Below, one piece after another: positions 5,281-20,564 of a stretch of DNA of 25,277 bases. Origin of the DNA: a virus (taxonomy: Duplodnaviria > Heunggongvirae > Uroviricota > Caudoviricetes); IMG/VR virus record IMGVR_UViG_2737471859_000003. One strand, 5' to 3'. Numbering within the stretch: the stretch's first letter is position 1; every line of letters starts with the position of its first letter. The translations under genes and the position numbers were made by a program. The notes beneath the pieces were generated by a model. It was not told the DNA's origin and made no database searches. It saw nothing but the letters and a program-made list of their open reading frames with translations.

Positions 5281-5518
5281 GTCTGGCCTCTCCGTCCTGA
5301 TTTCGCTGTTGATTTTCCACGCGGAGTTGCGCCAGCACCTGCTGCATATCCTGTACCCCGGTGCTGATGATATTCAGGTTGTCGACGGTGCTTTTCAGGG
5401 CGCTGGCCTGCGCTTCGTTTCTGGCGTTCTCCCGGCCCAGCGACCACGACAGACGCATGGATGTTCCCCATGCGGCAATCAGAAGGAAAGCGACGCCCAG
5501 CGTGGGCCAGAGCTTCAT
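5111..5518 (-). CDS. Inner-membrane spanin (i-spanin; Rz/LysB-like)
   Basis: ATG at 5518 overlaps the endolysin stop (ATGA). N-terminal TM helix (LWPTLGVAFLLIAAWG), then a charged, Q/R/E-rich, probably coiled-coil periplasmic domain; 135 aa. Confidence 0.75.
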   Translation of the reverse strand: MKLWPTLGVAFLLIAAWGTSMRLSWSLGRENARNEAQASALKSTVDNLNIISTGVQDMQQVLAQLRVENQQRNQDGEARREQLRNDIAKDECAHALPDARFTDRLRRHAERATASAVSPAYTADADHTGNTSPLP

Positions 5519-5907
5519 GCCGGATAGGCTCCGTGTGGTAACTGAAAATGCGGTCCGTCTTTCAGGGTCTTCCAGTCGCCGCCCCATTCCACCGGAATAT
5601 TCAGTTCCCGGCTGGCCTGTCTGAATGCTGCTGCGATTTTTTCGTACAGCGGCCATTCCCATGACACCTGGCTGCCGACATAAGCCACAACATCCACGGC
5701 ATGCCCCGTAAGGTGGCGGCTGTTCATGGTCTGGCTCTTACCCGTGGCCACCAGTTGCTTCTGGCGGTAACGGCTGCGCAACCCTTCGGTGATACCAAAA
5801 TCCACTTCCGAGATTTCCAGTGCCCGTCGGGTCACTTTCACCAGATCAGGATTTACGCCCTGCAAATTCTTTTCGCTCCGGCTGCTGAATTTAAATGTGT
5901 TGCTCAT
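5515..5907 (-). CDS. Endolysin, peptidase M15-type (zinc metallopeptidase; putative L-alanyl-D-glutamate endopeptidase), not the P2 gpK lysozyme type
   Basis: 130 aa; SRHLTGHAVDVV is the His/Asp zinc-binding signature of the LAS/M15 peptidase fold. Lies between holin and spanins; ATG overlaps the holin stop. Confidence 0.75.
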   Translation of the reverse strand: MSNTFKFSSRSEKNLQGVNPDLVKVTRRALEISEVDFGITEGLRSRYRQKQLVATGKSQTMNSRHLTGHAVDVVAYVGSQVSWEWPLYEKIAAAFRQASRELNIPVEWGGDWKTLKDGPHFQLPHGAYPA

Positions 5908-7025: not shown

Positions 7026-7826
7026 TTAACCGCGCTTCGCCTTCTGCGTCGCGATGGTTTTTCGTGTTGCAGGCTTCCGCGTTGTCTTTTTACTTTTGCT
7101 GCTTTCGTCCTGCGTCTGCGGTGTGCTGGCATCTTCTGGTGCGGCTGCGGAATCGGCTTTCTTCAGGGCGCGGGAAAGGGTTGCAATCTCGCGTTTCACA
7201 CCTGCGTTCGGGTTCAGGTGCATCGCTTCGCGCAGCAGCTTCAGTGATGAGGCCATGCTGTCCGCATCGCTCAGGCCACGGCGGGCAAAGGCGCACGCCT
7301 TGCATAATTTGGCGCGCACTTCGTCCGGCATATCCTGGTTGGCGACAATTTCCCAAAGTGTGTCCAGTGGTTCGATAAAGGTGGACAAATCCGCGTCGGC
7401 ATCCGTCCCGGCCTGCGTCAGTACCGGGTTGCAGATTTCTTCGGTCAGCACTGTGGCAGCAGTACGGCCAAAGTTATCCGGCATAATGAGGTTGTGACGG
7501 ACCACATACGCACCAATACGCAGCGCAAGCGGAAGATCGCCGCAGTCAATCGCCCACACCATCAGCGTGGCAATCACTTCATCCTGCTGCCCGCCGTCAG
7601 CCTCCAGCGTTCCCTCAATCCAGCCGGAAAAGTCCGGCAACAACTCTTTTTTGATGGCGGCTTTCGCGCTTCTGGCCTGTACGCCCTTAAGCCGGGCCTG
7701 TGCCAGACGCAGACGATACAGCACCTCTTCATGCGCGGTACGCGCGGCGTGGTCCACGCCTTCATTCGCCCGGCCTGCGCGCTGTGCCATCACGTTCTGC
7801 CAGTGTTGCTGTGCAGGAGTAATCAT
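7026..7826 (-). CDS. M: Terminase small (endonuclease) subunit, P2 gpM-like
   Basis: 266 aa with a basic K/R-rich C-terminal tail; GGAGAG Shine-Dalgarno 6 nt before ATG; N-M-L order. Confidence 0.8.
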   Translation of the reverse strand: MITPAQQHWQNVMAQRAGRANEGVDHAARTAHEEVLYRLRLAQARLKGVQARSAKAAIKKELLPDFSGWIEGTLEADGGQQDEVIATLMVWAIDCGDLPLALRIGAYVVRHNLIMPDNFGRTAATVLTEEICNPVLTQAGTDADADLSTFIEPLDTLWEIVANQDMPDEVRAKLCKACAFARRGLSDADSMASSLKLLREAMHLNPNAGVKREIATLSRALKKADSAAAPEDASTPQTQDESSKSKKTTRKPATRKTIATQKAKRG

Positions 7827-7871
7827 TTTTTCTCTCCGTTACAGGCGGGCATGATGCCCGCCGTGAGTTGA

Positions 7872-8924
7872 TTAGCTGTCGGCGAACTTCAGGCCAGTGA
7901 CCATCGCGCACTTGCCATAGTCTTCAACGACATAAGCGTCATTGATGGACTGGTAGGTGGCGATGCGGTTGTATTCCGGTTCGTCTTTCATCAGACGACG
8001 CATTGAACCTTTCTGCCAGTAAATCGACAGGTTGTTGAACGAGGTGATCAGCATCGTTGAATCCGGGAAGAACGGCGCAAGGAACACGCCCAGCCCGCCA
8101 ATGGTGCGCGATGACAGAATGAGCTGCCCGGCGAGTAATTCCGCATTAGGATTCTGGCCGCTGATGCTGTTCAGCACGGGCAGACGCAGCGAGTTAAACA
8201 GGTTGCGCCCCATAATCACCACGAGGTCGTCAGCTTCCTTGTGCCATTCATCCAGCAGGGATGAGCGCGCGTCCTGTACCAGTGCATCAGCGTTCGCATA
8301 CTTACCCGCGTGCGCCACGGTGTTGTCCATGTTACGGGAGGTCAGCGTCACGTCATTCATAACGCGTTCGCTGGCGTCGGTTCTGATGTGCTCCAGCCAC
8401 CCCACGTTAACGTCCTGAAGCAACTTGTTGGTGCTGAAGTTGGACTCATCCGCGTGAGACGTGCCGTTGAAACCGATCATGATGCGGTCAAGCGCCACCT
8501 GTCGGGCAATCTGTGCGCTGATGCGGGACTGAAAATCAGGGTGTGCCGACCAGGCATCAAGCTGCGGATACGAAATAAACGTGTCGTAGTTCACCTGTTC
8601 ACACTGGTATTTGCGGTTTTTCAGATCAACCACGTTATTCGGGTTACGGCGTTTTGTGCCGTCATAACTGGTATTCGTGCGCGCAATCGGTCCTGTGGTA
8701 TCCAGGAGGATTTTTTCGCCTTTCTGGTCGGTCACGCCGATCACGTTAATTCTTTTCGTAAATTCGGTACTTTCCTTTGAGGCGTTTTCAAAACGCTGCT
8801 GCACCGCGGGTTCCACGGTAAATCGCGATACCAGTGCGGAAACCGGAATATTATTAAGCGACGCCTGCTGCGCCATATAGCAACCCAGCTTGTTGCGGGT
8901 AATATCTGACATCACCAGATTCAT
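7872..8924 (-). CDS. N: Major capsid protein, P2 gpN-like
   Basis: 350 aa; FTVEP, GEKI, NKYxC, YVVEDY and LSIY segments align with P2 gpN as I recall it. Confidence 0.9.
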   Translation of the reverse strand: MNLVMSDITRNKLGCYMAQQASLNNIPVSALVSRFTVEPAVQQRFENASKESTEFTKRINVIGVTDQKGEKILLDTTGPIARTNTSYDGTKRRNPNNVVDLKNRKYQCEQVNYDTFISYPQLDAWSAHPDFQSRISAQIARQVALDRIMIGFNGTSHADESNFSTNKLLQDVNVGWLEHIRTDASERVMNDVTLTSRNMDNTVAHAGKYANADALVQDARSSLLDEWHKEADDLVVIMGRNLFNSLRLPVLNSISGQNPNAELLAGQLILSSRTIGGLGVFLAPFFPDSTMLITSFNNLSIYWQKGSMRRLMKDEPEYNRIATYQSINDAYVVEDYGKCAMVTGLKFADS

Positions 8925-9938: not shown

Positions 9939-11690
9939 ATGATTCAGGACGCTTTTGTGCGCCAGCGTGCGCGGCAACTTTACTGGCAGGGTTATCCGCC
10001 CGCAGAAATATCACGTCTGATGGGAATAAACCCGAACACGATTTATGCGTGGAAAAAACGTGACCAGTGGGATGAAACGCCACCCGTGCAGCGTGTCACG
10101 CAGTCCATCGATGCGCGCCTCATCCAGCTTACTGAAAAACAGAATAAAACAGGCGGTGACTTTAAGGAAATAGACCTGCTGACCCGGCAGCTTAAAAAGC
10201 TGCATGATGGCCAGCCGGATGTGATGGCCGCAGGAAAGAAAGGCCGGGCGAAAAAACTCAAAAATCATTTCACGCCGGAACAGATTGCCGCACTGCGGGA
10301 AAAAATCATCAGCAGGCTGGAGTGGCATCAGCGTGGCTGGTTTGACTCCCTTACCCTTTGCAGGGAAGCCGGGATACGTAACAGGATGATCCTGAAATCC
10401 CGACAGATTGGGGCGACCTGGTATTTTGCACAGGAAGCACTGCTGATGGCGCTGCGTGACGATGTGGCGCAACCTTACCAGCGTAACCAGATTTTTTTGT
10501 CTGCGTCGCGTCGTCAGGCGTTCCAGTTTAAAAGCATTATTCAGAAGGCCGCGGCTGAAGTTGATGTGGAGCTGAAAGGGGGCGATAAAATCATCCTCTC
10601 AAACGGCGCAGAGCTGCATTTTCTCGGCACTTCTGCTGCGTCGGCACAGTCCTATACGGGCAATTTTTATTTTGATGAATTTTTCTGGGTCAGTCGCTTT
10701 GCTGAACTGCGCAAGGTGGCTGGCGCGATGGCAACCCTCAGCGGACTGCGGCGCACCTACTTCTCCACGCCATCCACCGAAACGCACGAGGCATACGCCT
10801 ACTGGAACGGCGACCGCTGGAACGAGAAAAAGGCCGCGCATAAACGCCAGCATTTTTCTGTGGACTGGAAAACGCTGCATAACGGGCTTATCTGCCCCGA
10901 CCGGACGTGGCGGCAAATTGTCACGCTGGAAGATGTGGTTAATCACGGCTGGAAACACACCGATATCGACGAAATTCGTGATGAAAACACCGAAGACGAG
11001 TTTCTCAATCTCTATATGTGTGAGTTTGTCCGCGAAGGGGAATCGGCATTTAACCTGAATATCCTGATTGGCTGCGGCGTTGACGGGTACGACGACTGGA
11101 AAGACTGGAAACCTTTTGCTCCCCGCCCGATGGGGAATCGTCCGGTATGGATTGGGTATGACGCAAACGGCAGCAGCGGCAACGGCGACAGCGGCGCTGT
11201 GTCCGTGGTGGTTCCTCCGGCTGTTCCTGGTGGCCGTTTTCGAACGGTGGAGACGCGACGCGTTCAGGGGCTGGAGTTTGAAGAACAGGCCAGAGTCATT
11301 GAAGAGTTCACGTATCGCTACAACGTGGAACACATCGGCATTGATGTGACGGGCGGGAACGGGGAGGCTGTTTATCAGATAGTGAAACGGTTTTTCCCTG
11401 CTGCTATTCCGTACACCTTCACGCTGTCATCAAAACGGTCGCTGGTACTGAAAATGCTGCAAATAATGCGTGCCGGGCGGTGGGAATACGATCGCGCCGA
11501 ACGCGAGCTGGTCGCGGCCTTTAACGCCGTGCGTAAGGTGAAAACACCGGGCGGCTTTATCACTTACGAAACGGACCGCGCGAGGGGGATCAGCCACGGC
11601 GACCTTGCGTGGGCAACCATGCTTGCTGTCATTAACGAACCGATTGGCGGCGAAGGAGAAAACGAGCGTTTCACGGTTATGGAGTTCTGA
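9939..11690 (+). CDS. P: Terminase large (ATPase) subunit, P2 gpP-like
   Basis: 583 aa (P2 gpP ~590 aa); GGGGGAG Shine-Dalgarno before ATG 9939; stop overlaps the Q start by 1 nt (TGATG). Confidence 0.9.
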   Translation: MIQDAFVRQRARQLYWQGYPPAEISRLMGINPNTIYAWKKRDQWDETPPVQRVTQSIDARLIQLTEKQNKTGGDFKEIDLLTRQLKKLHDGQPDVMAAGKKGRAKKLKNHFTPEQIAALREKIISRLEWHQRGWFDSLTLCREAGIRNRMILKSRQIGATWYFAQEALLMALRDDVAQPYQRNQIFLSASRRQAFQFKSIIQKAAAEVDVELKGGDKIILSNGAELHFLGTSAASAQSYTGNFYFDEFFWVSRFAELRKVAGAMATLSGLRRTYFSTPSTETHEAYAYWNGDRWNEKKAAHKRQHFSVDWKTLHNGLICPDRTWRQIVTLEDVVNHGWKHTDIDEIRDENTEDEFLNLYMCEFVREGESAFNLNILIGCGVDGYDDWKDWKPFAPRPMGNRPVWIGYDANGSSGNGDSGAVSVVVPPAVPGGRFRTVETRRVQGLEFEEQARVIEEFTYRYNVEHIGIDVTGGNGEAVYQIVKRFFPAAIPYTFTLSSKRSLVLKMLQIMRAGRWEYDRAERELVAAFNAVRKVKTPGGFITYETDRARGISHGDLAWATMLAVINEPIGGEGENERFTVMEF

Positions 11691-12736
11691 TGAGCAGAAA
11701 AAATAAAAAAGTGCGCATGAGTTCACGCATTGATCTCGCTGATGCGCTCAGGAAAGAATCATCGCTCAGTGCATTCACATTTGATGGTCCTTATCGCCTG
11801 ACCGGGCATGATCTGCTGGACAATATGTACTGTGCTGATAACGGGCGGTGGTATGAAACCCCGGTGGACTGGTACGGTCTGGCAAGAGCTGCCCGGCAAA
11901 CGTCCTGGCATCAGTCTGCGCTTTACTTTAAGCGCAATGTATTGCTCGGTTGCTACATCCCGCACCCGCTGCTTTCCCGGCAGGATTTCTCGGCGCTGGC
12001 GCTGGACTGGTTTGTGTTCGGTAACGCATTCCTTGAGCTTCGGAGCAATATGCTCGGCGAACCACTTAAATTACGGCACGCACTGGCGAAATACATGCGA
12101 CGCGGAAGCGATCTTGAATCATGGTGGTATGTGCAGGATGGCAAGGACGCGTTTCAGTTTCGCCCTGGCAAAGTGTGCCACCTGATGAATCCGGACATTA
12201 ACCAGGAAATTTACGGCATGCCGGAATATCTTGGCGCATTACTCTCGGCCAGCCTGTCTCATTCGGCGGACATGTTCAGAAAACTGTATTACGACAATGG
12301 ATCCCACGCCGGGTGCATCATCTACATCGGTGCAGCGCAGGTAAACCGCGAAAGCATGGACTCCCTGAAAGAAACGTTACAGGGTGCGCGTGGTGGTGGT
12401 GCGTTTAAAAACGTGCTCATCCATGCGCCCAACGGGGGCAAAGAGGGGGTGCAAATTTTGCCGTTCCAGCAGATCACCGCAAAGGATGAGTTCATGAATG
12501 TTAAGGCGGCATCCCGTGATGATGTGCTGGCTGCGCACCGCGTTCCGCCGCAACTGATGGGGGCGATGCCGGGCGAAAAAAGTGCGTTTGGTGATGTGGA
12601 GAAGGCAGCGCGGGTTTATGCAATTAACGAGCTGATGCCCGTAATGGAGGCCATGAAGCATATCAATGACTGGCTTGGCGAAGAGGTGATCCGTTTTAAC
12701 TCTTATGCTCTTCTTGATGAAAAAACAGCCCCGTGA
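11690..12736 (+). CDS. Q: Portal (capsid portal) protein, P2 gpQ-like
   Basis: 348 aa (P2 gpQ ~344 aa), directly downstream of P. Confidence 0.9.
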   Translation: MSRKNKKVRMSSRIDLADALRKESSLSAFTFDGPYRLTGHDLLDNMYCADNGRWYETPVDWYGLARAARQTSWHQSALYFKRNVLLGCYIPHPLLSRQDFSALALDWFVFGNAFLELRSNMLGEPLKLRHALAKYMRRGSDLESWWYVQDGKDAFQFRPGKVCHLMNPDINQEIYGMPEYLGALLSASLSHSADMFRKLYYDNGSHAGCIIYIGAAQVNRESMDSLKETLQGARGGGAFKNVLIHAPNGGKEGVQILPFQQITAKDEFMNVKAASRDDVLAAHRVPPQLMGAMPGEKSAFGDVEKAARVYAINELMPVMEAMKHINDWLGEEVIRFNSYALLDEKTAP

Positions 12737-12752
12737 TGGGGCTGTCCTTTTT
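12721..12752. terminator. Bidirectional rho-independent terminator shared by convergent Q and the 174-aa gene
   Basis: AAAAA-ACAGCCCC-GTGAT-GGGGCTGT-CCTTTTT: an 8-bp GC-rich stem with a 5-nt loop, flanked by an A-run and a T-run. The Q stop codon lies in the loop. Confidence 0.7.
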
Positions 12753-13275
12753 ACCAGAGTTGAACCATTTTCTGGGTGCCGTCAGGCTTGAGATTATCAA
12801 TTTCAGAGAGAACGTAATATTGAATGGCTTCACAAACGGTGGTGTAGGGTGAATTACCTTCTTTAAGTGGCACGATATTATTATTAACGCGAACCTGTAT
12901 TTCATCGTTATACATTGCGATCGAAACAGGAGTGTGTACGAACGCGACTTCGCCAGGTGTGTCGTCAACCACCGTTTCAATACTAAAAGTCAGTTTTCGC
13001 TCATCATTGCTGCCTCGTGCTTTGGGGGTAGCGGCAGGGATCTGGGATAAAGGCATTCTGCGAAATCCTTCGGCTGCTTCCAGTCCACATGAAACGTAAT
13101 GCTGGCGATTACCGTCGCTATCTGTCCAGGTCTGTGATGGCAGCTCCAGCGAGATTTCATAAGCATCAACAATGCCCTGGGCAAGGCGTACAAGCGGGGT
13201 CAGATCTTCATTGCGGCGAAAGCTCTCCTTTACCTGCTCCCGTTTTTCTCTTAACTGCTTGTAATTAATGACCAT
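12751..13275 (-). CDS. Hypothetical protein (174 aa), cargo gene of unknown function
   Basis: ATG at 13275 (MVINYKQLREKREQVK...) 8 nt after GGAGG; open for 174 codons; lower GC than flanking structural genes; no family recognised. Confidence 0.6.
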   Translation of the reverse strand: MVINYKQLREKREQVKESFRRNEDLTPLVRLAQGIVDAYEISLELPSQTWTDSDGNRQHYVSCGLEAAEGFRRMPLSQIPAATPKARGSNDERKLTFSIETVVDDTPGEVAFVHTPVSIAMYNDEIQVRVNNNIVPLKEGNSPYTTVCEAIQYYVLSEIDNLKPDGTQKMVQLW

Positions 13276-13376
13276 AAGACAGCCTCCATTGATTTCTTTG
13301 CTCGTATTTTGCACTTATGAAGTATGGTCGGCAAGGTGCCGTATCGCTGACGCGCTTCGCTTGTCTGCTGCTTCGC

Positions 13377-13401
13377 CGGGGCATAAAAAATTTATGCCCC
13401 G
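13377..13401. repeat. Perfect 25-nt palindrome CGGGGCATAAA-AAA-TTTATGCCCCG
   Basis: Read directly from sequence; 11-bp arms with a 3-nt centre, ~100 bp upstream of the 174-aa gene start. Function unknown. Confidence 0.5.
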
Positions 13402-13806
13402 ACTCTCCAGCTCCTGTATCAATCAGATAATTTCACGACGCCTTCCAGCTTATTGTCATCATCGACGGTCAGGCTCTTACGCAATCCCGCCGTGCTGACT
13501 GCATGTTCTCGTCGCCTCAGTGCGATTTTGACGGCCTTATCAGTCACCCCATCAAATCAAAAGCCCTCACGTATTTTTCACGCTCAGCGAGAGAAAGACA
13601 GCCATTCCGTTGTGTCGCTGCGACATCGTTCAGGGAATGCTGTTTACCCCCTGAAACGCGGGCTGTTCCCCCGTCACCTGCGCGCAGAAAAAGCGCGTTT
13701 TTTTGTGCACGCACGGATCCTTGACCGATCCAGCCGCCATGCGGGCCGGAAGGGCAAAAAGTCGTTCAAAAAAATTGTGCAAATTTGTGCGCTTTTGTGC
13801 AAAGAA

Positions 13807-13829
13807 ATGCCCCTCAAATTGAGGGGCAT
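13807..13829 (-). terminator. Putative terminator hairpin just downstream of the S8 protease gene
   Basis: Perfect palindrome ATGCCCCTCAA-A-TTGAGGGGCAT about 15 nt after the stop at 13844, followed on the minus strand by TTCTTTG. Confidence 0.5.
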
Positions 13830-13843
13830 TATGTCTTGAAGGA

Positions 13844-16069
13844 TTACGAACGAATAGGAATTGATGTTTGCGGTTGAATTGGCACGAGCACCTGATTATA
13901 AGTACGTAAAATTTCGTTATACAGGTCTTGGTGCTTTGATGCCTTAATGGTAATTATAAGAGCATACTTGATTTTTTCTGCCTTATGGCTGGCTATGCTT
14001 GCACCGGCCTCACGAGCGTTATAATGAATGTCAAATACAGGATTTTTTAGAGTTGAACCTAGCATGTTCTTCGAATTATGTAAGACGGTCTCCCATTTGC
14101 CCATGTCAGAACGTCGCTCACTTTCAGTTGAATATTTGGCCAGTTCAAAGAATCCCTTGGTTTCAGCATTTTGTTTTCCGTCTTTGATTTTTGAATCATT
14201 TGGCCGGAATGTCACTTCCAAACCAGCTTTTGTATAGGAAGCTGGGTCTTGTGGATCAGTGGTTGTTGCATAACAGAAAGTTGCCGCTAAGTTTATTCTA
14301 CCTTTCAAGCCACCTTCAGGTATTGGAAGAGGAGCGCGTAAGTATTTTCCTGGTTTCAATTCACCTTGGTAGACGATACGGGCAACACCATCAGGGCTGA
14401 CTATAATGTCGTTCAAGTCTTCAGGAAGTTTTCCCCAGCCAACTTCTGTACAAGGATGATCAAGCTGTTTTGACGCATGAATTAACAAAGCTTTGATTGC
14501 TAGTAGGCTCAAATCGTTCCCTAAAATTGCCCGAACACCAACAGCTGCTCGTAAGGCGTAAGGAGAGGCAAAGCTTGTTCCTAGCTGGGGTATGATTACA
14601 GGCTTCTTACCTTTACCTAAAACATGAAAGTACTCGTCTGTGTCACCACCAAACGCAACTAAATCCGGTTTCATCACGCCAGGACTTCTGCCTGGCCCAA
14701 TGGCGCTATATGGTGCTCGTTTCCATTCCGTATCATTAACTGTATCACAAGCACCAACAGCAAGAGCATTAACGCAATCGGCTGGTACTTGAATTCTTGC
14801 ATTACCAGACTTGCGATCCATTTCTCCATTGTTGCCAACAGCAACAGTCATTAATGTTTCACCATCACTTAACAAATCATCAATAACGGAAGTCCATGCA
14901 TGAACTTCCGTATCTTCAATTGGTAGGTCTGGACCTAAACTTAGATTGATAAACTGATACTGGCGAGACAACAATACCTCTTCAATAAAGCCCAAAGTTC
15001 GATATAGTTCCAGCGGATCTTCTTGGCAGGTCTTGTTGTCCAAAACTCTTAAGTTATCAATATAAGAGTATGGTCTTTTCGCTTCCGATTTATTACTTAT
15101 TGGTCCAAATAAAAAGGCTGAAGACACAGCTAAACCATGCTCTAAACCGTCTGGATCATCCTCTGCATGATCGTCCAAAACTCTATAGGATTTTAACCAT
15201 GGCGATATAGCGTGCTCTGATGGTAAACCACCATCAAGAATCGCAACTTTTATTTCTGAAGATACGGGGCCCTCAGCAGGCAATTTACACTGAGCTAAAG
15301 GACCGTAGTTCCTTTGTATTGGTCTAATCCCACGCAATCTTGGAACCGGTCTTATTACTCGTACAAATGTAAATTTCGCAAGCTTACTAATAGTAATTCT
15401 ATCGGCCTGGATTGGCACGAACCATAATGTACCAGCGGTAAAAGCTAATGAAGTATGTACTTTGATGTTCAAATTTGATGCAAACTGAACAAATTGTTGC
15501 TGAACCAAGTCTTGTTCATTATCTGGCAGTAAATGAACACCAACCTCAAAATACGAAGAATCCTGCTCACCAATGGTAATAATACGCTCTTCGGGTAAAT
15601 AGGCATCGAACCGTTCTATGCGTGCAAAATCAATCGCTTCGTCAGAAAACTCTTTGAGTCCTGACACCCAATGAGGTAACTCTTTGAAGGATTCTCTTTT
15701 ACCAGCAACAAACATTTGTGTCGTAGTTACTTCTGACACAGTAACTTTTCGCTTCCAGCTTTGAGGCGTAATTTTTACCGTCCTGCTGCCAATAGACGTT
15801 AACCCGGTAGACTTAAGCATTTTTGCAGGAAAAAAAGAGCGTGCAATATAGCTCGGATTCAACGTCAACTTAGCCACAGCATAATCATAAGGACATGCCT
15901 GACTGGGTAAATCATCAAAATTTTCTATAGTAGATGCAATTTGCGGCAATAACCGTTGTTTCGATTCGTAAAGAGAATAAACCTCAGCTTTTCCGGGCAC
16001 TCTTTTAGGACCAGGAATATCGCTGGTTAATAATTCGCCGCGTCCAATCAGAAAATTAGTTTTCGCCAT
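13844..16069 (-). CDS. Subtilisin-like (peptidase S8) serine protease, 741 aa, with N- and C-terminal extensions of unknown function; tentatively IetS-like
   Basis: Catalytic triad motifs in subtilase order: Asp in VAILDGG, His in EHGLAVSS, Ser in GTSFASP. AAGGAG Shine-Dalgarno 5 nt before the ATG. AT-rich codon usage unlike the phage backbone. Confidence 0.8.
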   Translation of the reverse strand: MAKTNFLIGRGELLTSDIPGPKRVPGKAEVYSLYESKQRLLPQIASTIENFDDLPSQACPYDYAVAKLTLNPSYIARSFFPAKMLKSTGLTSIGSRTVKITPQSWKRKVTVSEVTTTQMFVAGKRESFKELPHWVSGLKEFSDEAIDFARIERFDAYLPEERIITIGEQDSSYFEVGVHLLPDNEQDLVQQQFVQFASNLNIKVHTSLAFTAGTLWFVPIQADRITISKLAKFTFVRVIRPVPRLRGIRPIQRNYGPLAQCKLPAEGPVSSEIKVAILDGGLPSEHAISPWLKSYRVLDDHAEDDPDGLEHGLAVSSAFLFGPISNKSEAKRPYSYIDNLRVLDNKTCQEDPLELYRTLGFIEEVLLSRQYQFINLSLGPDLPIEDTEVHAWTSVIDDLLSDGETLMTVAVGNNGEMDRKSGNARIQVPADCVNALAVGACDTVNDTEWKRAPYSAIGPGRSPGVMKPDLVAFGGDTDEYFHVLGKGKKPVIIPQLGTSFASPYALRAAVGVRAILGNDLSLLAIKALLIHASKQLDHPCTEVGWGKLPEDLNDIIVSPDGVARIVYQGELKPGKYLRAPLPIPEGGLKGRINLAATFCYATTTDPQDPASYTKAGLEVTFRPNDSKIKDGKQNAETKGFFELAKYSTESERRSDMGKWETVLHNSKNMLGSTLKNPVFDIHYNAREAGASIASHKAEKIKYALIITIKASKHQDLYNEILRTYNQVLVPIQPQTSIPIRS

Positions 16070-16092: not shown

Positions 16093-17214
16093 TTACATTT
16101 TTTGACTGTATTTTCTAATTGTATCCCTACTGACTCCGGTTAAGTCTGATATGGCATGCTGGGATAATTTAGAATTTCTTTTTAGAGTAACTGCAATTTC
16201 TTTACGTTCATTCCTGTCTAATTCTGATAAACCATCTTTAATGAACGACCCAATCAACTCTTCATCTGAGGAAATACCTAAAGCGACCGAACGTCGGAAT
16301 TTGTTGATAGAACGCTCAATATTACTAAAAGATTCATTTTTGAACATAATAGCCAGTAGATCTATCCAACGTGCAAAAATCGCGTAGTCGGGACCTGAAA
16401 AGCGTTTAATTGCTTCTTTAATACTTTCGCTATCTGGCTTCTCAAAATTGAGCACTAAATCAAAACGTCTCCATAGTGCTGGATCAATCAACTCAGCGAA
16501 GTTAGTTGCAGCAAGTAACAAACTAGAAGACGGCCATTCGTCAACCTCCTGGAGTATTACGGTAACAAGTCTTTTTAATTCTCCAACATCAGAATCATCA
16601 CTTCTCTTTTTGGCGATTGAATCAATTTCATCTAACAGAAGAACGCACGGCCCTTTCTTCGCAAAATCTAGAGCTGCCCGAAGGTTATTTCCGCTTTTGC
16701 CCAGATAGCTGCTCATTACTGCCGTTAAATCAAGAACGTAAAAAGGAACCCCTAATTTCTGAGCTAACCAGCTTGCCGTAAGTGTTTTACCTACACCCGG
16801 AGGGCCAACAAAAATGGCAGAGCGTGTTGGTTGTAAGCCGAGAGTCTTGAGGCGATCGATGTGCTTCCGCTCAAGAATAATTTGATCCAGTGAGTCTTCT
16901 ATCTGACTGGACAGTAGAGGTTTGCTCACAATCTTTTCATTTGGTGCTTTAAGCAAGGTAAGCCTTGACTCCTCGTCCACAGGCATGGTTTGAGGCAGCG
17001 CTTGTTTTGGTGCGGTAACCTTACGCAGGCTTTGTGCAGGCTTTTGCGGTTTATTTCGTAGATAAAGATCAAGCTGCTCGGATAGAGCAGGCATAGTTTC
17101 CCGATATTTACGCACCAAGCGAGCGACATATAACCGAACGTCATCATACTGTTCAGTTATTACCAGTCTAACTAGTTGGGCTAAATCTGACTGAATACCA
17201 CCTAAGTCGCCCAT
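16093..17214 (-). CDS. Classical AAA+ ATPase, 373 aa; tentatively IetA-like
   Basis: Walker A GPPGVGKT, Walker B LLLDEID, sensor-1 / second-region-of-homology LLLAATNFAELIDPALWRRFD. The extreme C-terminus LSQHAISDLTGVSRDTIRKY looks like a helix-turn-helix. 23-nt gap to the protease gene suggests an operon. Confidence 0.8.
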   Translation of the reverse strand: MGDLGGIQSDLAQLVRLVITEQYDDVRLYVARLVRKYRETMPALSEQLDLYLRNKPQKPAQSLRKVTAPKQALPQTMPVDEESRLTLLKAPNEKIVSKPLLSSQIEDSLDQIILERKHIDRLKTLGLQPTRSAIFVGPPGVGKTLTASWLAQKLGVPFYVLDLTAVMSSYLGKSGNNLRAALDFAKKGPCVLLLDEIDSIAKKRSDDSDVGELKRLVTVILQEVDEWPSSSLLLAATNFAELIDPALWRRFDLVLNFEKPDSESIKEAIKRFSGPDYAIFARWIDLLAIMFKNESFSNIERSINKFRRSVALGISSDEELIGSFIKDGLSELDRNERKEIAVTLKRNSKLSQHAISDLTGVSRDTIRKYSQKM

Positions 17215-17394: not shown

Positions 17395-20178
17395 TTATTT
17401 TTTCTTCTCGCTATTGCCTTTGTCCTGCAACAGACCCGCCTTGTGACGTGCGCGTTCAGTGGTTTCATTGATTCTCTGTGCGTGCTCTGCGTCACGGATG
17501 GCGCGCAGCATGTCAGAAAGCACGGTAACGGGAGTTTTCATGGTGTTCTGGTCCTGCTGAATTGTGGATGCCAGGCGTGCAGCGGCTTCAGGGTCTGATG
17601 CCCCGAGCTGTTTCAGATAGCTGGAAACCGGGTTATGGCGGATTTCCGTGCTGTTTACGCCGTGATTACGGCTCAGGCGCTGCCAGAGCTGCGTGATTCG
17701 GCTGTCCGGTCGGGTATCTGGTTTGCGTACAATTTCAAATCCCTGCGGTGCAATGATGCTGCCGTCAACGTACAGACTGCCGCCTCGTAACAGGTGCTGC
17801 ATCTGCTGTTCACCGATATGCAGGCCGAGAGATTCGGCAGATTCCCGCCATTCTTTAGCGAGTAATTCGTGGTTATCAGGCAAAGGCCGCTGCTGTTTGC
17901 GGCTCTGTGTCCAGCTCTGCATTTCATCACTGCTGTTTTTTGCCTGTTTGTCACGAAGCGAACGCATCAGCGCCCGGCGTTCGTGCCGTTTCAGTGAGCG
18001 CATCCATTCGTTCACTTCAACGCCGTCAGGGAGCTGCGGCCACGGTGCTGGCCGTTCTTCCGGCTGTTCTGTCCCGTTGTTGTCCGTTTCCTGTACACGG
18101 GGACAGTTATTGCCACGAGTCCAAGGGGCGGCAGAGCCGCCCTGAAGGTCAAAACCATTTTCGTGGGTGCTGTCTTCCGCTTCCGGTTTACGTCTTACCA
18201 GCTTCCAGTTATCCGGGTGCGTGCACACACGGGAGGATTCCCCGATGAGTGGCGACCAGATCCCGTAAATCTGTACACTCTGTTCGCCGTAATCGTTCAG
18301 CTCATCTGCGAGGTCGTAGGCTGTGCGAATCAGGTAGTCCTTGCGCGGAACAAGTACGCCACCCTGTTTTTCAATGTAGGTGGCAAAACACCCGGCATCA
18401 GCGGCAGCAAGAACCGCATCCATTGCGTCATCCTTCAGCCGTTGCGGGCCCTCCGGGTTGCGTGCCATCTGGCTGGCAAGGCGGCGGAGTTCACGCCACA
18501 CCTGACGGGAGGGGATGCCAAAGAACTGGAACTGGCGGACCCGGTGAAGGCGCGCCCAGCCGATGGCGCGCTCCACGCTCTCGGCCATTGATTTTCCGGT
18601 TTCGTGGTCAACGCGTGGCTTGCCCGTTTTCGGGTCGATGCCATCTACGGCGCGGCTGTCCAGGTTTTTTCCGATGTAGGTCGCGATATAGCTGGTTGGT
18701 GTGCCTTTTGAGCCGTCGACATACTCCGCCTTAAAGCGCGGAGTAATATCATCGCCCAGTTCGTGACGATCTTCCTGAATGGCAATATCGCGGGTGATGG
18801 CCACGATGCTGTCGATTTCTTCCGGATGAGCAAAGACCATCATATGCCAGTGCACGGTGCCGTCATGGTGAGGCTCCACCGTGCGGATGCCATACCAGCG
18901 CAGGCCGTCGCGGTTCAGTTTTTTGCGGACCGCCGCAAAAAACGTGTTAACCAGGTAATCGCTGGAGTCGCGCATGGTGGCCCCGTTCCATTTGGGATTC
19001 GGATGACCGTTCTCCGTTGTTGCGTGGTATTTTGACGGGCAGGTGACAGTCAGAAACACCGCTTTGTCACCACGGGCTTCGGCCAGAAGTTCCAGCCCCT
19101 TCATGGTGGCCATCATTTCTGCCTTACGGTGAACCGGGTTACTTACTCCCGCGTAATACACTGTCTCGAGATCAATCGTGAACCCGTCTTCATTTTCCAG
19201 CATGAAACTTTTCAGGAAATCGCGTGTTTTCTCGCGCTGTGCGCGAAATTCACTTAATGCGTCCTGGCTCAGATAGGGTGATGTTTTTCTGGAAACCAGA
19301 CAGGCGGCGCGAAGTTGTTCTTCTCTCCACTCGCAACGTAAAAGCCACAGTTTGCGTTTCCACCATTCCGCACAGGTCAGGCGAAGGATTGCACCCGGCA
19401 GCAGTTCCGTGTCCGGTTCGTTCCTCCGGTCTTTGTCTGTTGTCAGTGCGTCATAATGCGGAGGCATGGCGTGCAGGTGTAACGCCATGCGGGCCAGCAT
19501 CTGATACGCCTTCAGCGTTACATCCATGGTCAGCTCGCCATCAGTCGCACCAAAGCCATCGCAGAGCTTTTCGAAGGTGCTGCTGAACATCGCCGCCGTC
19601 ATGGTGGCCAGCGTCTGTATCTGGTGTTTGTTGAGCTGCGGCAGGTAAAGCAAATCGTCCAGGCGTTCGCGTCCGGCAATGGAGCGATAACCCGGTGTCA
19701 GCCAGCGGCTGTCGGTGCGGTCCAGACGTCCGAATATTTTGCGCAGGGTTCCGCGTGCATAGCGTTCCGCCTGCCAGCTCTTTTTGCCTTTCTGGCGATC
19801 GGCTTCCTGTTTTTTGCGCAGGAAAGAGAGGTGGCGGCTCAGTGGTTCACGCAGATAAACAGGTAGTGCCTTTAGTGTGGCAAAGGCACGGGCTACCGGG
19901 TCTTGTTCTGTTGCCCGGCGCTTACTGATGATGCTCTGTGCCAGCTTTTCACGCTGTCCGGCTTCCTCAAGGGATGCCATGAGTTTTTTACCCATGGCGG
20001 ATTGTGCGAAAAAGGCTTCTTCCTTCGCTTCCTGTTCTTCCTGTGCCCTTTTGTCCGCCTCAAGGTAGTAACGGATGGCGCGTTGCAGGTCGGTTTCAGT
20101 TTCCTGCCTGCGCTCCGTAAATCTGGCCGGATCAATGGCTGGCCGTGGTTCATTCCAGCTCCATGCAAACTCACTCAT
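17395..20178 (-). CDS. A: Replication initiation endonuclease (rolling-circle, HUH-type), P2 gpA-like
   Basis: ATG at 20178 (MSEFAWSWNEP...) overlaps the upstream gene stop (ATGA). HUH motif in TVHWHMMVF and paired tyrosines in SYIATYIGKN, as in P2/phiX174 A proteins. ~927 aa versus ~761 aa in P2. Confidence 0.8.
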   Translation of the reverse strand: MSEFAWSWNEPRPAIDPARFTERRQETETDLQRAIRYYLEADKRAQEEQEAKEEAFFAQSAMGKKLMASLEEAGQREKLAQSIISKRRATEQDPVARAFATLKALPVYLREPLSRHLSFLRKKQEADRQKGKKSWQAERYARGTLRKIFGRLDRTDSRWLTPGYRSIAGRERLDDLLYLPQLNKHQIQTLATMTAAMFSSTFEKLCDGFGATDGELTMDVTLKAYQMLARMALHLHAMPPHYDALTTDKDRRNEPDTELLPGAILRLTCAEWWKRKLWLLRCEWREEQLRAACLVSRKTSPYLSQDALSEFRAQREKTRDFLKSFMLENEDGFTIDLETVYYAGVSNPVHRKAEMMATMKGLELLAEARGDKAVFLTVTCPSKYHATTENGHPNPKWNGATMRDSSDYLVNTFFAAVRKKLNRDGLRWYGIRTVEPHHDGTVHWHMMVFAHPEEIDSIVAITRDIAIQEDRHELGDDITPRFKAEYVDGSKGTPTSYIATYIGKNLDSRAVDGIDPKTGKPRVDHETGKSMAESVERAIGWARLHRVRQFQFFGIPSRQVWRELRRLASQMARNPEGPQRLKDDAMDAVLAAADAGCFATYIEKQGGVLVPRKDYLIRTAYDLADELNDYGEQSVQIYGIWSPLIGESSRVCTHPDNWKLVRRKPEAEDSTHENGFDLQGGSAAPWTRGNNCPRVQETDNNGTEQPEERPAPWPQLPDGVEVNEWMRSLKRHERRALMRSLRDKQAKNSSDEMQSWTQSRKQQRPLPDNHELLAKEWRESAESLGLHIGEQQMQHLLRGGSLYVDGSIIAPQGFEIVRKPDTRPDSRITQLWQRLSRNHGVNSTEIRHNPVSSYLKQLGASDPEAAARLASTIQQDQNTMKTPVTVLSDMLRAIRDAEHAQRINETTERARHKAGLLQDKGNSEKKK

Positions 20179-20564
20179 GGCTGGTATCCCGTCACGCGCT
20201 GCCACTCCTGCGAGAAGATGGCGGAAAGGCGGTTAAATTCAGCGGTGTATTCACTCAGCGAGGCACACCCGCCAGCAGTGCGATGCGCCAGCATTGCCGC
20301 AAATACGGAGGCCGGGGAGTCATAATACGCCAGCAGTGATTCGCCGTGTGGTGTCAGGCAGTGCAACGCCAGCCCGTGTGGTGTGAAATCCACGCGGTAG
20401 CAGTCGTCTACTGTGAAATAAAGGGTGTCCGCATTCTCCGGTTTTGTGGTGCGTGCTCTGTTGTCACGACCACGGATGTAGAGATCAAATAATCCCTGAA
20501 GAATGGGAGCCAGACGGGTGTCCTGTGTGCGCACCCATCTTGTGAAGTCATGAGCGTCAATCAT
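20175..20564 (-). CDS. Hypothetical early-operon protein (129 aa)
   Basis: ATG start; stop overlaps the A start codon, implying translational coupling; no family recognised. Confidence 0.55.
   Translation of the reverse strand: MIDAHDFTRWVRTQDTRLAPILQGLFDLYIRGRDNRARTTKPENADTLYFTVDDCYRVDFTPHGLALHCLTPHGESLLAYYDSPASVFAAMLAHRTAGGCASLSEYTAEFNRLSAIFSQEWQRVTGYQP

Follow-up and report, generated by a model that had tools for sequence, protein, structure and literature searches.

Gene order and content of the locus

The stretch of DNA considered here (the window) comprises the 25 277 nucleotides of IMG/VR virus record IMGVR_UViG_2737471859_000003, which by its sequence is a P88-like prophage of Escherichia coli, belonging to the genus Xuanwuvirus of the family Peduoviridae (the P2 family). 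Our subject is the spacer between the start codon (ATG at 13275) of a minus-strand gene for a 174-aa protein and the stop codon (at 13844) of a minus-strand gene for a 741-aa protein. We consider, with a probability of roughly 80%, that this spacer is the cos (cohesive-end, DNA-packaging) region of the prophage, bracketed by transcript-end hairpins of the neighbouring operons (Table 1). On this reading the element is not new in kind: sites like it are known, and this one had gone unannotated.

The order of genes, running from scaffold through large terminase (TerL), portal, spacer and cargo to the replication gene gpA, is the same as in P2 (the P2 and 186 records were compared), and the spacer has the portal gene (gpQ) on one side and, on the other, the replication/cargo arm of this P2-like genome. 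In the records of P2 and 186 the cohesive-end site is at the matching place, adjoining the portal gene, and both cos and a hotspot for defence cargo have been located between gpQ and gpA in P2-like phages (Rousset et al., 2022; PMC9122126).

A first-pass annotation, made from the letters of the sequence, had described the spacer as non-coding and had listed two perfect palindromes, a set of TTGTGC repeats and a CGCGC hairpin followed by a T-run. All of these were found in their places, but the annotation had not recognised the core, including the repeats and the CGCGC hairpin, as a phage cos. The spacer does appear to be non-coding, as its internal open reading frames show no third-codon-position bias among seven relatives. 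Some GenBank records annotate small open reading frames here as hypothetical proteins, but none has a coding signature, and in a 42-aa frame annotated in some records the changes are mostly non-synonymous. There is no codon periodicity in the variable sites of 13402–13642, and Rfam gave no match in the spacer at E values up to 1.

Table 1. Features of the spacer and of its surroundings (window coordinates; offsets with a plus sign are counted from 13660)
Feature	Position	Strand	Remarks
Palindrome 1, CGGGGCATAAAAAATTTATGCCCCG	13377–13401	+	11-nt perfect arms, 3-nt loop
Spacer from portal hairpin to cos core	13402–13642		Non-coding; 90–95% conserved, within Xuanwuvirus only
Putative cos core	13643–13802	+	Common to distant P2-family genera and a satellite
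Candidate 19-nt cohesive-end segment	13660–13678	minus	Reads GGTGACGGGGGAACAGCCC; P2 has GGCGAGGCGGGGAAAGCAC
19-nt slot holding the CGCGC...GCGCG hairpin	13679–13697	+	Equivalent of hairpin CGCCCGCTTCACGGGGCGG in the P2 55-bp cos core
T-run and GTGCAC, solitary first cos repeat	13698–13710	+	At +45
Variable cos spacer	13711–13774		Inverted repeat GGATC...GATCC 13715–13731; G-rich CATGCGGGCCGGAAGGGCA 13738–13756; A7 13768–13774
Three TTGTGC(A) direct repeats	13775–13801	+	At +117, +127, +137; putative small-terminase array, right edge of cos
Palindrome 2, ATGCCCCTCAAATTGAGGGGCAT	13807–13829	minus	Extends to 12-nt arms at 13806–13830
Inserted module (moron) relative to P88	12712–13345	minus	634 bp, replaces 20 bp of P88
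174-aa gene	12751–13275	minus	phrog_5091 (function unknown)
Small terminase (gpM homologue)	7026–7826	minus	From family scan
Capsid gene	7872–8924		Capsid and scaffold genes lie between small and large terminase
Large terminase	9939–11690
Portal	11690–12736
IetS-like S8 peptidase	13844–16069	minus
IetA-like AAA ATPase	16093–17214	minus
gpA replication protein homologue	17395–20205

A conserved core shared with a satellite-like element

The segment 13347–13802 is 91–95% identical in 16 Xuanwuvirus phage records, in none of which a cos is annotated, and 13640–13810 has matches in 1148 of 5426 complete E. coli genomes (~21%). In more than 500 E. coli genomes homology ends at 13801–13808, where the cargo starts; it continues into ietS in only 44. 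Relatives each bear a different cargo to the right of ~13802, usually opening with a hairpin of its own. (A prophage of E. coli STEC384 is 100% identical over an 801-nt query, 13700–14500.) Among 95 unique relatives from IMG/VR, column conservation collapses to zero immediately after +141, i.e. past the third of the clustered repeats.

The core is also present in a satellite-like element of E. coli NCTC9082 (NZ_LR134080.1, 4010320–4017778; L008 below), which occurs in 55 complete genomes. The satellite is 81.6% identical to the window over 13643–13801, and within the 871 bp compared this 160-bp block (13637/13643–13801) is the sole part common to the satellite and the P88-like prophages; it includes neither palindrome 1 nor the 240 nt that follow on the right. 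The genes of the satellite specify a major head protein of the P2 type that is extended by 118 aa at its N-terminus, along with an integrase, an 889-aa primase, an Ogr/Delta-like protein and a 236-aa protein of unknown function. Genes for portal, terminase or tail proteins were not found nearby, and there was no psu or sid homologue among the five satellite genes scanned. Next to the primase gene (L008 ~5400–5670) is an iteron-rich stretch of GGTTACA/TGTAACC repeats. The relationship of this putatively helper-dependent element to P88-like phages mirrors that of P4 to P2, which have only cos in common (PMC9122126). We found no description of the satellite family in the literature. In IMG/VR, a portal gene adjoins the site at all 92 of the 92 testable loci, so none of these is a satellite.

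Repeats in the register of P2, P4 and 186

The three TTGTGC repeats that had been noted at ~13775–13805 begin at 13775, 13785 and 13795, with a period of exactly 10 bp, and there is a fourth copy at 13703. As the hexamer is not enriched in the window as a whole (19 seen, 22 expected), it is the clustering and phasing of the copies that constitute the signal. When the locus was aligned with those of the Novemvirus phage phiT5282H, a Kluyvera prophage, an E. coli P2-like prophage (L007), an Arsenophonus contig and the satellite, the same modules appeared in the same order: a near-invariant GGGCTGTTCCCCCGTCACCTGCGCGC (13660–13685), a variable stretch of fixed length, a T-run with GTGCA (13698–13709), a variable spacer of ~60 nt, and an A-run with three GTGCA repeats.

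The register of these repeats was obtained by ungapped alignment, in one orientation, anchored on the experimentally known 19-nt cohesive ends of P2, P4 and 186. With GGGCTGTTCCCCCGTCACC (13660–13678) as the anchor, GTGCA falls at +45, +117, +127 and +137 in the window, and at the same four offsets in phiT5282H, the Kluyvera prophage and the satellite. P2, P4 and 186 have ATGCA (RTGCA as a common form) at +43, +115, +125 and +137/138, the counterpart of the solitary repeat being TTTTAATGCA at +43; all four repeats of the window are then no more than 2 nt from their P2, P4 and 186 positions, an arrangement for which the criterion was derived here from those three genomes and is not a published definition. 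Of the 95 IMG/VR relatives, 84, 73, 66 and 65 have TGCA in register at the first to fourth offsets, respectively. A template scan of the 25 kb, using the P2-derived spacings and any 5-mer with at most one mismatch, gave a sole match, at 13704/13705 on the plus strand, and in Markov simulations any match at all was obtained in only 3 of 200. The repeats stay in register whatever cargo follows, and in either orientation. From their offsets, which match those of P2, P4 and 186, we read the TTGTGC repeats as the cos repeats of this lineage, and by analogy with lambda cosB and HK97 they probably bind the small terminase.

Between the solitary and the clustered repeats, the inverted repeat at 13715–13731 contains two GATC (Dam) sites 11 bp apart. 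At this position most relatives have two GGATCC sites, and the satellite has a different inverted repeat, CGCCCTCCGGGCG.

Where the ends might be cut

The 13660–13678 block is the most conserved part of the locus across genera, and we favour it, by a small margin over even odds, as the candidate cut site. Its match to the P2 19-mer is 13/19 (14–15/19 in relatives), a score tied with those of eight other sites in the window, so the assignment rests on register and position and not on sequence identity. The adjoining 19-nt slot corresponds to the hairpin of the P2 core. The CGCGC hairpin that fills it here (arms 13681–13685 and 13693–13697, then T7 at 13698–13704) is present as had been described, and a consensus scan flags it as terminator-like; a stable, conserved stem was not borne out, as its folding is no better than that of shuffled sequences (z −0.4). 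Conservation of its 3′ arm does not extend to phiT5282H, L007, the satellite or many of the IMG/VR lineages, and its inner base pair is broken in about half of the Xuanwuvirus copies. It thus occupies the slot of the P2 hairpin, but is weak and lineage-specific.

Several observations weigh against the identification of the spacer as a P2-type cos, and against the placing of its ends. The P2 55-bp core is not matched in sequence (28/55 ungapped, among the top 6 of 50 446 positions but not unique), and Smith–Waterman comparison of P2 or P4 cos with the window gave scores within the range of shuffles. Besides the tie at 13/19, phages Chuche and P88_4B11 have lost 5–7 nt from the left half of the putative 19-mer, the half that is also variable in the published cohesive ends of P2-family phages. 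In LR595891, a linear record, the break corresponds to 13756|13757, 78 nt rightward of the segment predicted by the register, and the ends of IMG/VR contigs, used as a stand-in for physical genome ends, show no clustering at any of the candidate sites. The literature as far as found contains no account of gpM binding to repeats in any P2-family phage, and palindrome 1 does not have the U-tract of an intrinsic terminator. We assign the spacer to the P2-family cos class by position, architecture and sharing with a satellite, and not by the strict sequence of the 55-bp core.

The chief alternative also takes the region to be cos, but supposes that the cut is at the G-rich CATGCGGGCCGGAAGGGCA, between the solitary and the triple repeats, in a core rearranged with respect to that of P2. 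This sequence is G-rich, as P2-family cohesive ends are; it is kept in Xuanwuvirus, Novemvirus and the satellite; and LR595891 (phage P88_4B11) has its first base exactly at the equivalent of 13756 and its last at that of 13757. How the ends of that record were chosen could not be traced, however, and we found nothing in the literature on the origin (physical or arbitrary) of the ends of this, the only linear Xuanwuvirus record. CATGCGGGCCGGAAGGGCA is absent from L007 and Arsenophonus, in which the other blocks and their spacing persist, and it would need both an inversion and a move to fit the layout of P2, P4 and 186, which the 13660 anchor reproduces within 2 nt. We regard a cut at CATGCGGGCCGGAAGGGCA as rather unlikely, and retain 13660–13678 as the candidate. 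The G-rich segment had been matched by eye to the P2 19-mer and was demoted after the ungapped register comparison; an early guess that CCGTCA...GCGCGC matched a P2 flank was likewise dropped, as the ungapped register fitted P2, P4 and 186 within 2 nt. A genome-wide scan with the 16-mer TTGTGCAAATTTGTGC gave mostly chance matches, only 5 of 120 being both cos-like and relevant. At two further loci (in Aquimarina and in a Bacteroidetes metagenome-assembled genome), triple repeats of the TTGTGCAAATTTGTGCAAAT type occur ~100 nt from the 3′ ends of tRNA genes; these Bacteroidota repeats are probably unrelated chance matches or sites of integrative elements.

Hairpins of the flanking operons

Perfect hairpin palindromes whose arms reach 9 nt or more are scarce: there are five in the 25-kb window, two of them in the spacer (12 palindrome entries were observed, against ~0.8 in Markov simulations). 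When RNA from both strands was folded, both palindromes of the spacer were far below shuffled sequences (−20 to −24 kcal/mol, z −5.1 to −5.9).

After the stem of palindrome 1 (−22.2 kcal/mol on the plus strand, −24.4 kcal/mol on the minus strand, z ~−5.9) the RNA reads ACUCUCC from the plus strand and GCGAAGC from the minus strand, so the earlier remark that the palindrome has no U-tract is correct. For want of this tract it is better described as a hairpin that ends or stabilises a transcript, at the position of tQ, than as a canonical terminator. It is identical in 7 of 7 Xuanwuvirus records and in 44 of 46 IMG/VR relatives, and in the P88-type phages P88 and P88_4B11 the portal stop codon precedes it by ~27 nt. 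The annotated terminators tQ (P2) and tW (186) take this place after the portal gene, and phiT5282H and L007 have unrelated GC-rich hairpins there. As structure is thus kept at the position while sequence differs, palindrome 1 would act as a hairpin at the level of the transcript. All this suggests that it is the ancestral 3′-end hairpin of the late terminase–portal operon, serving as a weak terminator or RNA stabiliser, which has here been displaced from the portal gene by an inserted module with its own terminator.

The first-pass annotation had instead supposed that palindrome 1 might be a protein-binding site, and a sequence-specific binding site or a DNA cruciform would indeed suit a perfect 11-bp inverted repeat with a U-tract on neither strand, essentially invariant in Xuanwuvirus and set in the least variable 80 nt of the spacer. 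This low variability may simply extend that of the portal gene, which is 99% identical; moreover, the place is taken by tQ, tW and the hairpins of phiT5282H and L007, there is no second copy of palindrome 1 elsewhere in the window, and the satellite does without it, which implies that packaging does not need it. We think a binding site or cruciform unlikely, and keep to the transcript-level hairpin.

The module that separates palindrome 1 from the portal gene was evident from a global alignment with P88, in which homology stops at 12711 and resumes at 13346. The portal stop codon of P88, like that of most relatives, comes just before the equivalent of 13347, which identifies 12712–13345 as an insertion. 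It supplies a new C-terminus for the portal protein, a bidirectional terminator at 12725–12745 (folded, and also flagged by the scan), and the 174-aa gene, for which there was no Pfam, PADLOC or NCBIfam match. A putative weak promoter, TTGCCG-17-CAAAAT, can be read on the minus strand at 13334–13306, though the consensus promoter/terminator scan did not flag it. The module is also present in PhiR44_2, vB_EcoM-569R5, vB_EcoM-705R2 and the record Entero_P88_NC_026014(23), and may represent a second, smaller cargo site, on the portal side of cos.

Palindrome 2 lies on the other side, 14 nt past the ietS stop codon. Its minus-strand form (−20.4 kcal/mol, z −5.6) has a GC-rich stem of 9–11 bp and the tail UUUCUUUG, i.e. 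the sequence and folding of an intrinsic (Rho-independent) terminator, although a simple consensus terminator scan did not list it. The proposal that it ends an operon thus seems right, and we interpret it as the minus-strand intrinsic terminator of the ietA–ietS cargo operon; it may be bidirectional, also blocking read-through on the plus strand. In a search of other genomes it was found in 44, only together with ietS cargo, and outside the conserved block; other cargos have their own, different hairpins at its place. The two palindromes do share a GGGGCAT arm, as had been pointed out, but they differ in history (core as against cargo) and do not co-occur in relatives, and we therefore regard the shared 7-mer as a coincidence.

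The cargo itself belongs to the cos-proximal hotspot. PADLOC identified IetS (6.7e-52) and IetA (1e-77), and Pfam the domains Peptidase_S8 and AAA. The NCBIfam equivalog models IteS and IteA match below their cut-offs despite the strong PADLOC scores, and we therefore take the pair as a divergent IetA/IetS variant. It takes the place of the parM/partition genes found between gpA and cos in P88, and in phiT5282H a related S8 peptidase occurs at the cargo place, with a different terminator hairpin.

Two further perfect palindromes in the window lie away from the spacer. One, GTTTTTTGCGGACCGCCGCAAAAAAC (11-nt arms, 18918–18943), is inside the gpA gene and may relate to the replication origin. The other, GGCGGGCATGATGCCCGCC (7844–7862), is in the gap between the capsid and small terminase genes, contains GGGCAT/ATGCCC, and may be an intra-operon attenuator or RNA-stability hairpin.

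Other roles for the repeats and the border

Phased direct repeats are typical of binding sites for regulators, and the corresponding ATGCA cluster of P2 coincides in part with the −35 region of the old–tin promoter, for which transcript starts are annotated at 33424/33426. The TTGTGC repeats might accordingly be operator or promoter elements of neighbouring cargo or early genes instead of packaging signals. This is very unlikely, given that the register of the repeats is independent of the cargo that follows and of its orientation, that the adjacent operon here runs towards the repeats and ends before them, that the satellite and P4 keep the repeats beside unrelated genes, and that a consensus scan found no sigma-70-like site at them.

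A second suggestion concerns the border. Cos ends have been speculated to promote exchange at the hotspot (PMC9122126), and every relative switches cargo within ~5 nt of 13802, so that the sharp edge after the third repeat might be a target for site-specific recombination in cargo swaps, instead of or besides packaging. None of the cargos encountered here has an associated recombinase gene, the cargo on the left (the 174-aa module) was inserted at a different kind of junction, and selection for an intact cos would give an equally sharp border; we consider a recombination target highly improbable.

Replication of P2 begins within gene A, at an origin that gpA nicks. With a gpA homologue encoded elsewhere in the window, and with the satellite having its separate iteron-rich region by its primase gene, it is scarcely credible that the repeats and their A/T runs are iterons of a replication origin, for all their 10-bp phase and the A7 and T7 runs that flank the three copies.

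Comparison with known cos regions

The 55-bp core of P2, 186 and P4 (Ziermann & Calendar, 1990, as cited in PMC5694545 and PMC3931495) provides the closest comparison. Like the P2, 186 and P4 sites, the proposed cos adjoins the portal gene, is common to phage and satellite, and abuts a hotspot for cargo or defence genes; it has a conserved C-rich/G-rich 19-mer, a 19-nt slot and a T-run with RTGCA, and three more RTGCA motifs ~72, 82 and 92–95 nt beyond the first. It differs in having GTGCA where they have ATGCA, in the weakness of the hairpin in the slot, and in overall sequence, which cannot be aligned with that of P2 above chance; and their cohesive ends are known experimentally, whereas those of the window are placed from sequence. 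The portal-to-cos distance, ~313 nt in P88 and 167 nt in P2, exceeds 900 nt here because of the insertion.

In phiCTX (NC_003278), repeats R3–R6 and an IHF site are annotated around cosL/cosR. Its CTGCA/CTGCG motifs (CTGCR), at about +44, +116 and +125, are in the same register, so that here too repeats flank a P2-family cos, but the variable base is different, the cohesive end is annotated as 21 nt, and no IHF site was identified in the window. In lambda, R sites in cosB are bound by the small terminase gpNu1, and HK97 cos is recognised by its small terminase (PMC11331095 and PMC10370121). The same working model, in which short repeats by the nick site recruit the small terminase, can be applied here, although the proteins and sequences are unrelated and the likeness is one of analogy.

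The flanking elements also have parallels. Palindrome 1 has the post-portal place of tQ and tW, but they have a U-tract and it does not. Like 186 t95b, palindrome 2 ends an operon of the rightward region just before cos, but it belongs to mobile cargo and not to the phage backbone. The variable cargo between gpA and cos/gpQ, here the IetAS-like pair, agrees with the cos-proximal defence hotspot of P2-like phages (PMC9122126), from which the window differs in its second insertion, beside the portal gene; at a similar position there are extra genes in phiCTX and phiRSY1 too (PMC5694545).

A probable packaging site and its possible specificity

In lytic growth, then, the gpM homologue would recognise an array of GTGCA-containing repeats, one copy at 13703–13710 and three at 13775–13801, the latter phased one helical turn apart. 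The bound small terminase would position the large terminase for staggered nicks, most likely around GGGCTGTTCCCCCGTCACC, leaving P2-like 5′ cohesive ends of ~19 nt. Since the satellite carries the same 160-bp block, the helper's terminase should be able to package it too.

None of these results overturns current understanding. What they do is to mark a previously unannotated cos for a prophage lineage found in about a fifth (~21%) of complete E. coli genomes, and to set the right border of that lineage's defence-cargo hotspot at ~13802. In the limited literature accessible to us we found no description of a cos for Xuanwuvirus or P88, and no statement that P2-family cos repeats have fixed offsets and a first base that varies between lineages. 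The core could be useful for making cosmids or transducing particles from P88-like phages.

P2, 186 and P4 have A as the first base of the repeat, phiCTX has C, and the P88/Novemvirus clade has G, as does its satellite. It is conceivable, though we put it forward tentatively, that the four phased NTGCA repeats, at set distances from the cut, are a recognition code for the small terminases of the P2 family, the variable base setting the specificity of packaging between helper and satellite. Fixed spacing combined with a changing motif base in P2, 186, P4, phiCTX and the P88 clade gives a simple rule for finding P2-family cos regions, and the rule may predict which satellites can be packaged by a given helper. 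If the code is real, the P88-type cos would define a separate class of piracy, served by a satellite family that, unlike P4, has its own P2-type capsid protein.

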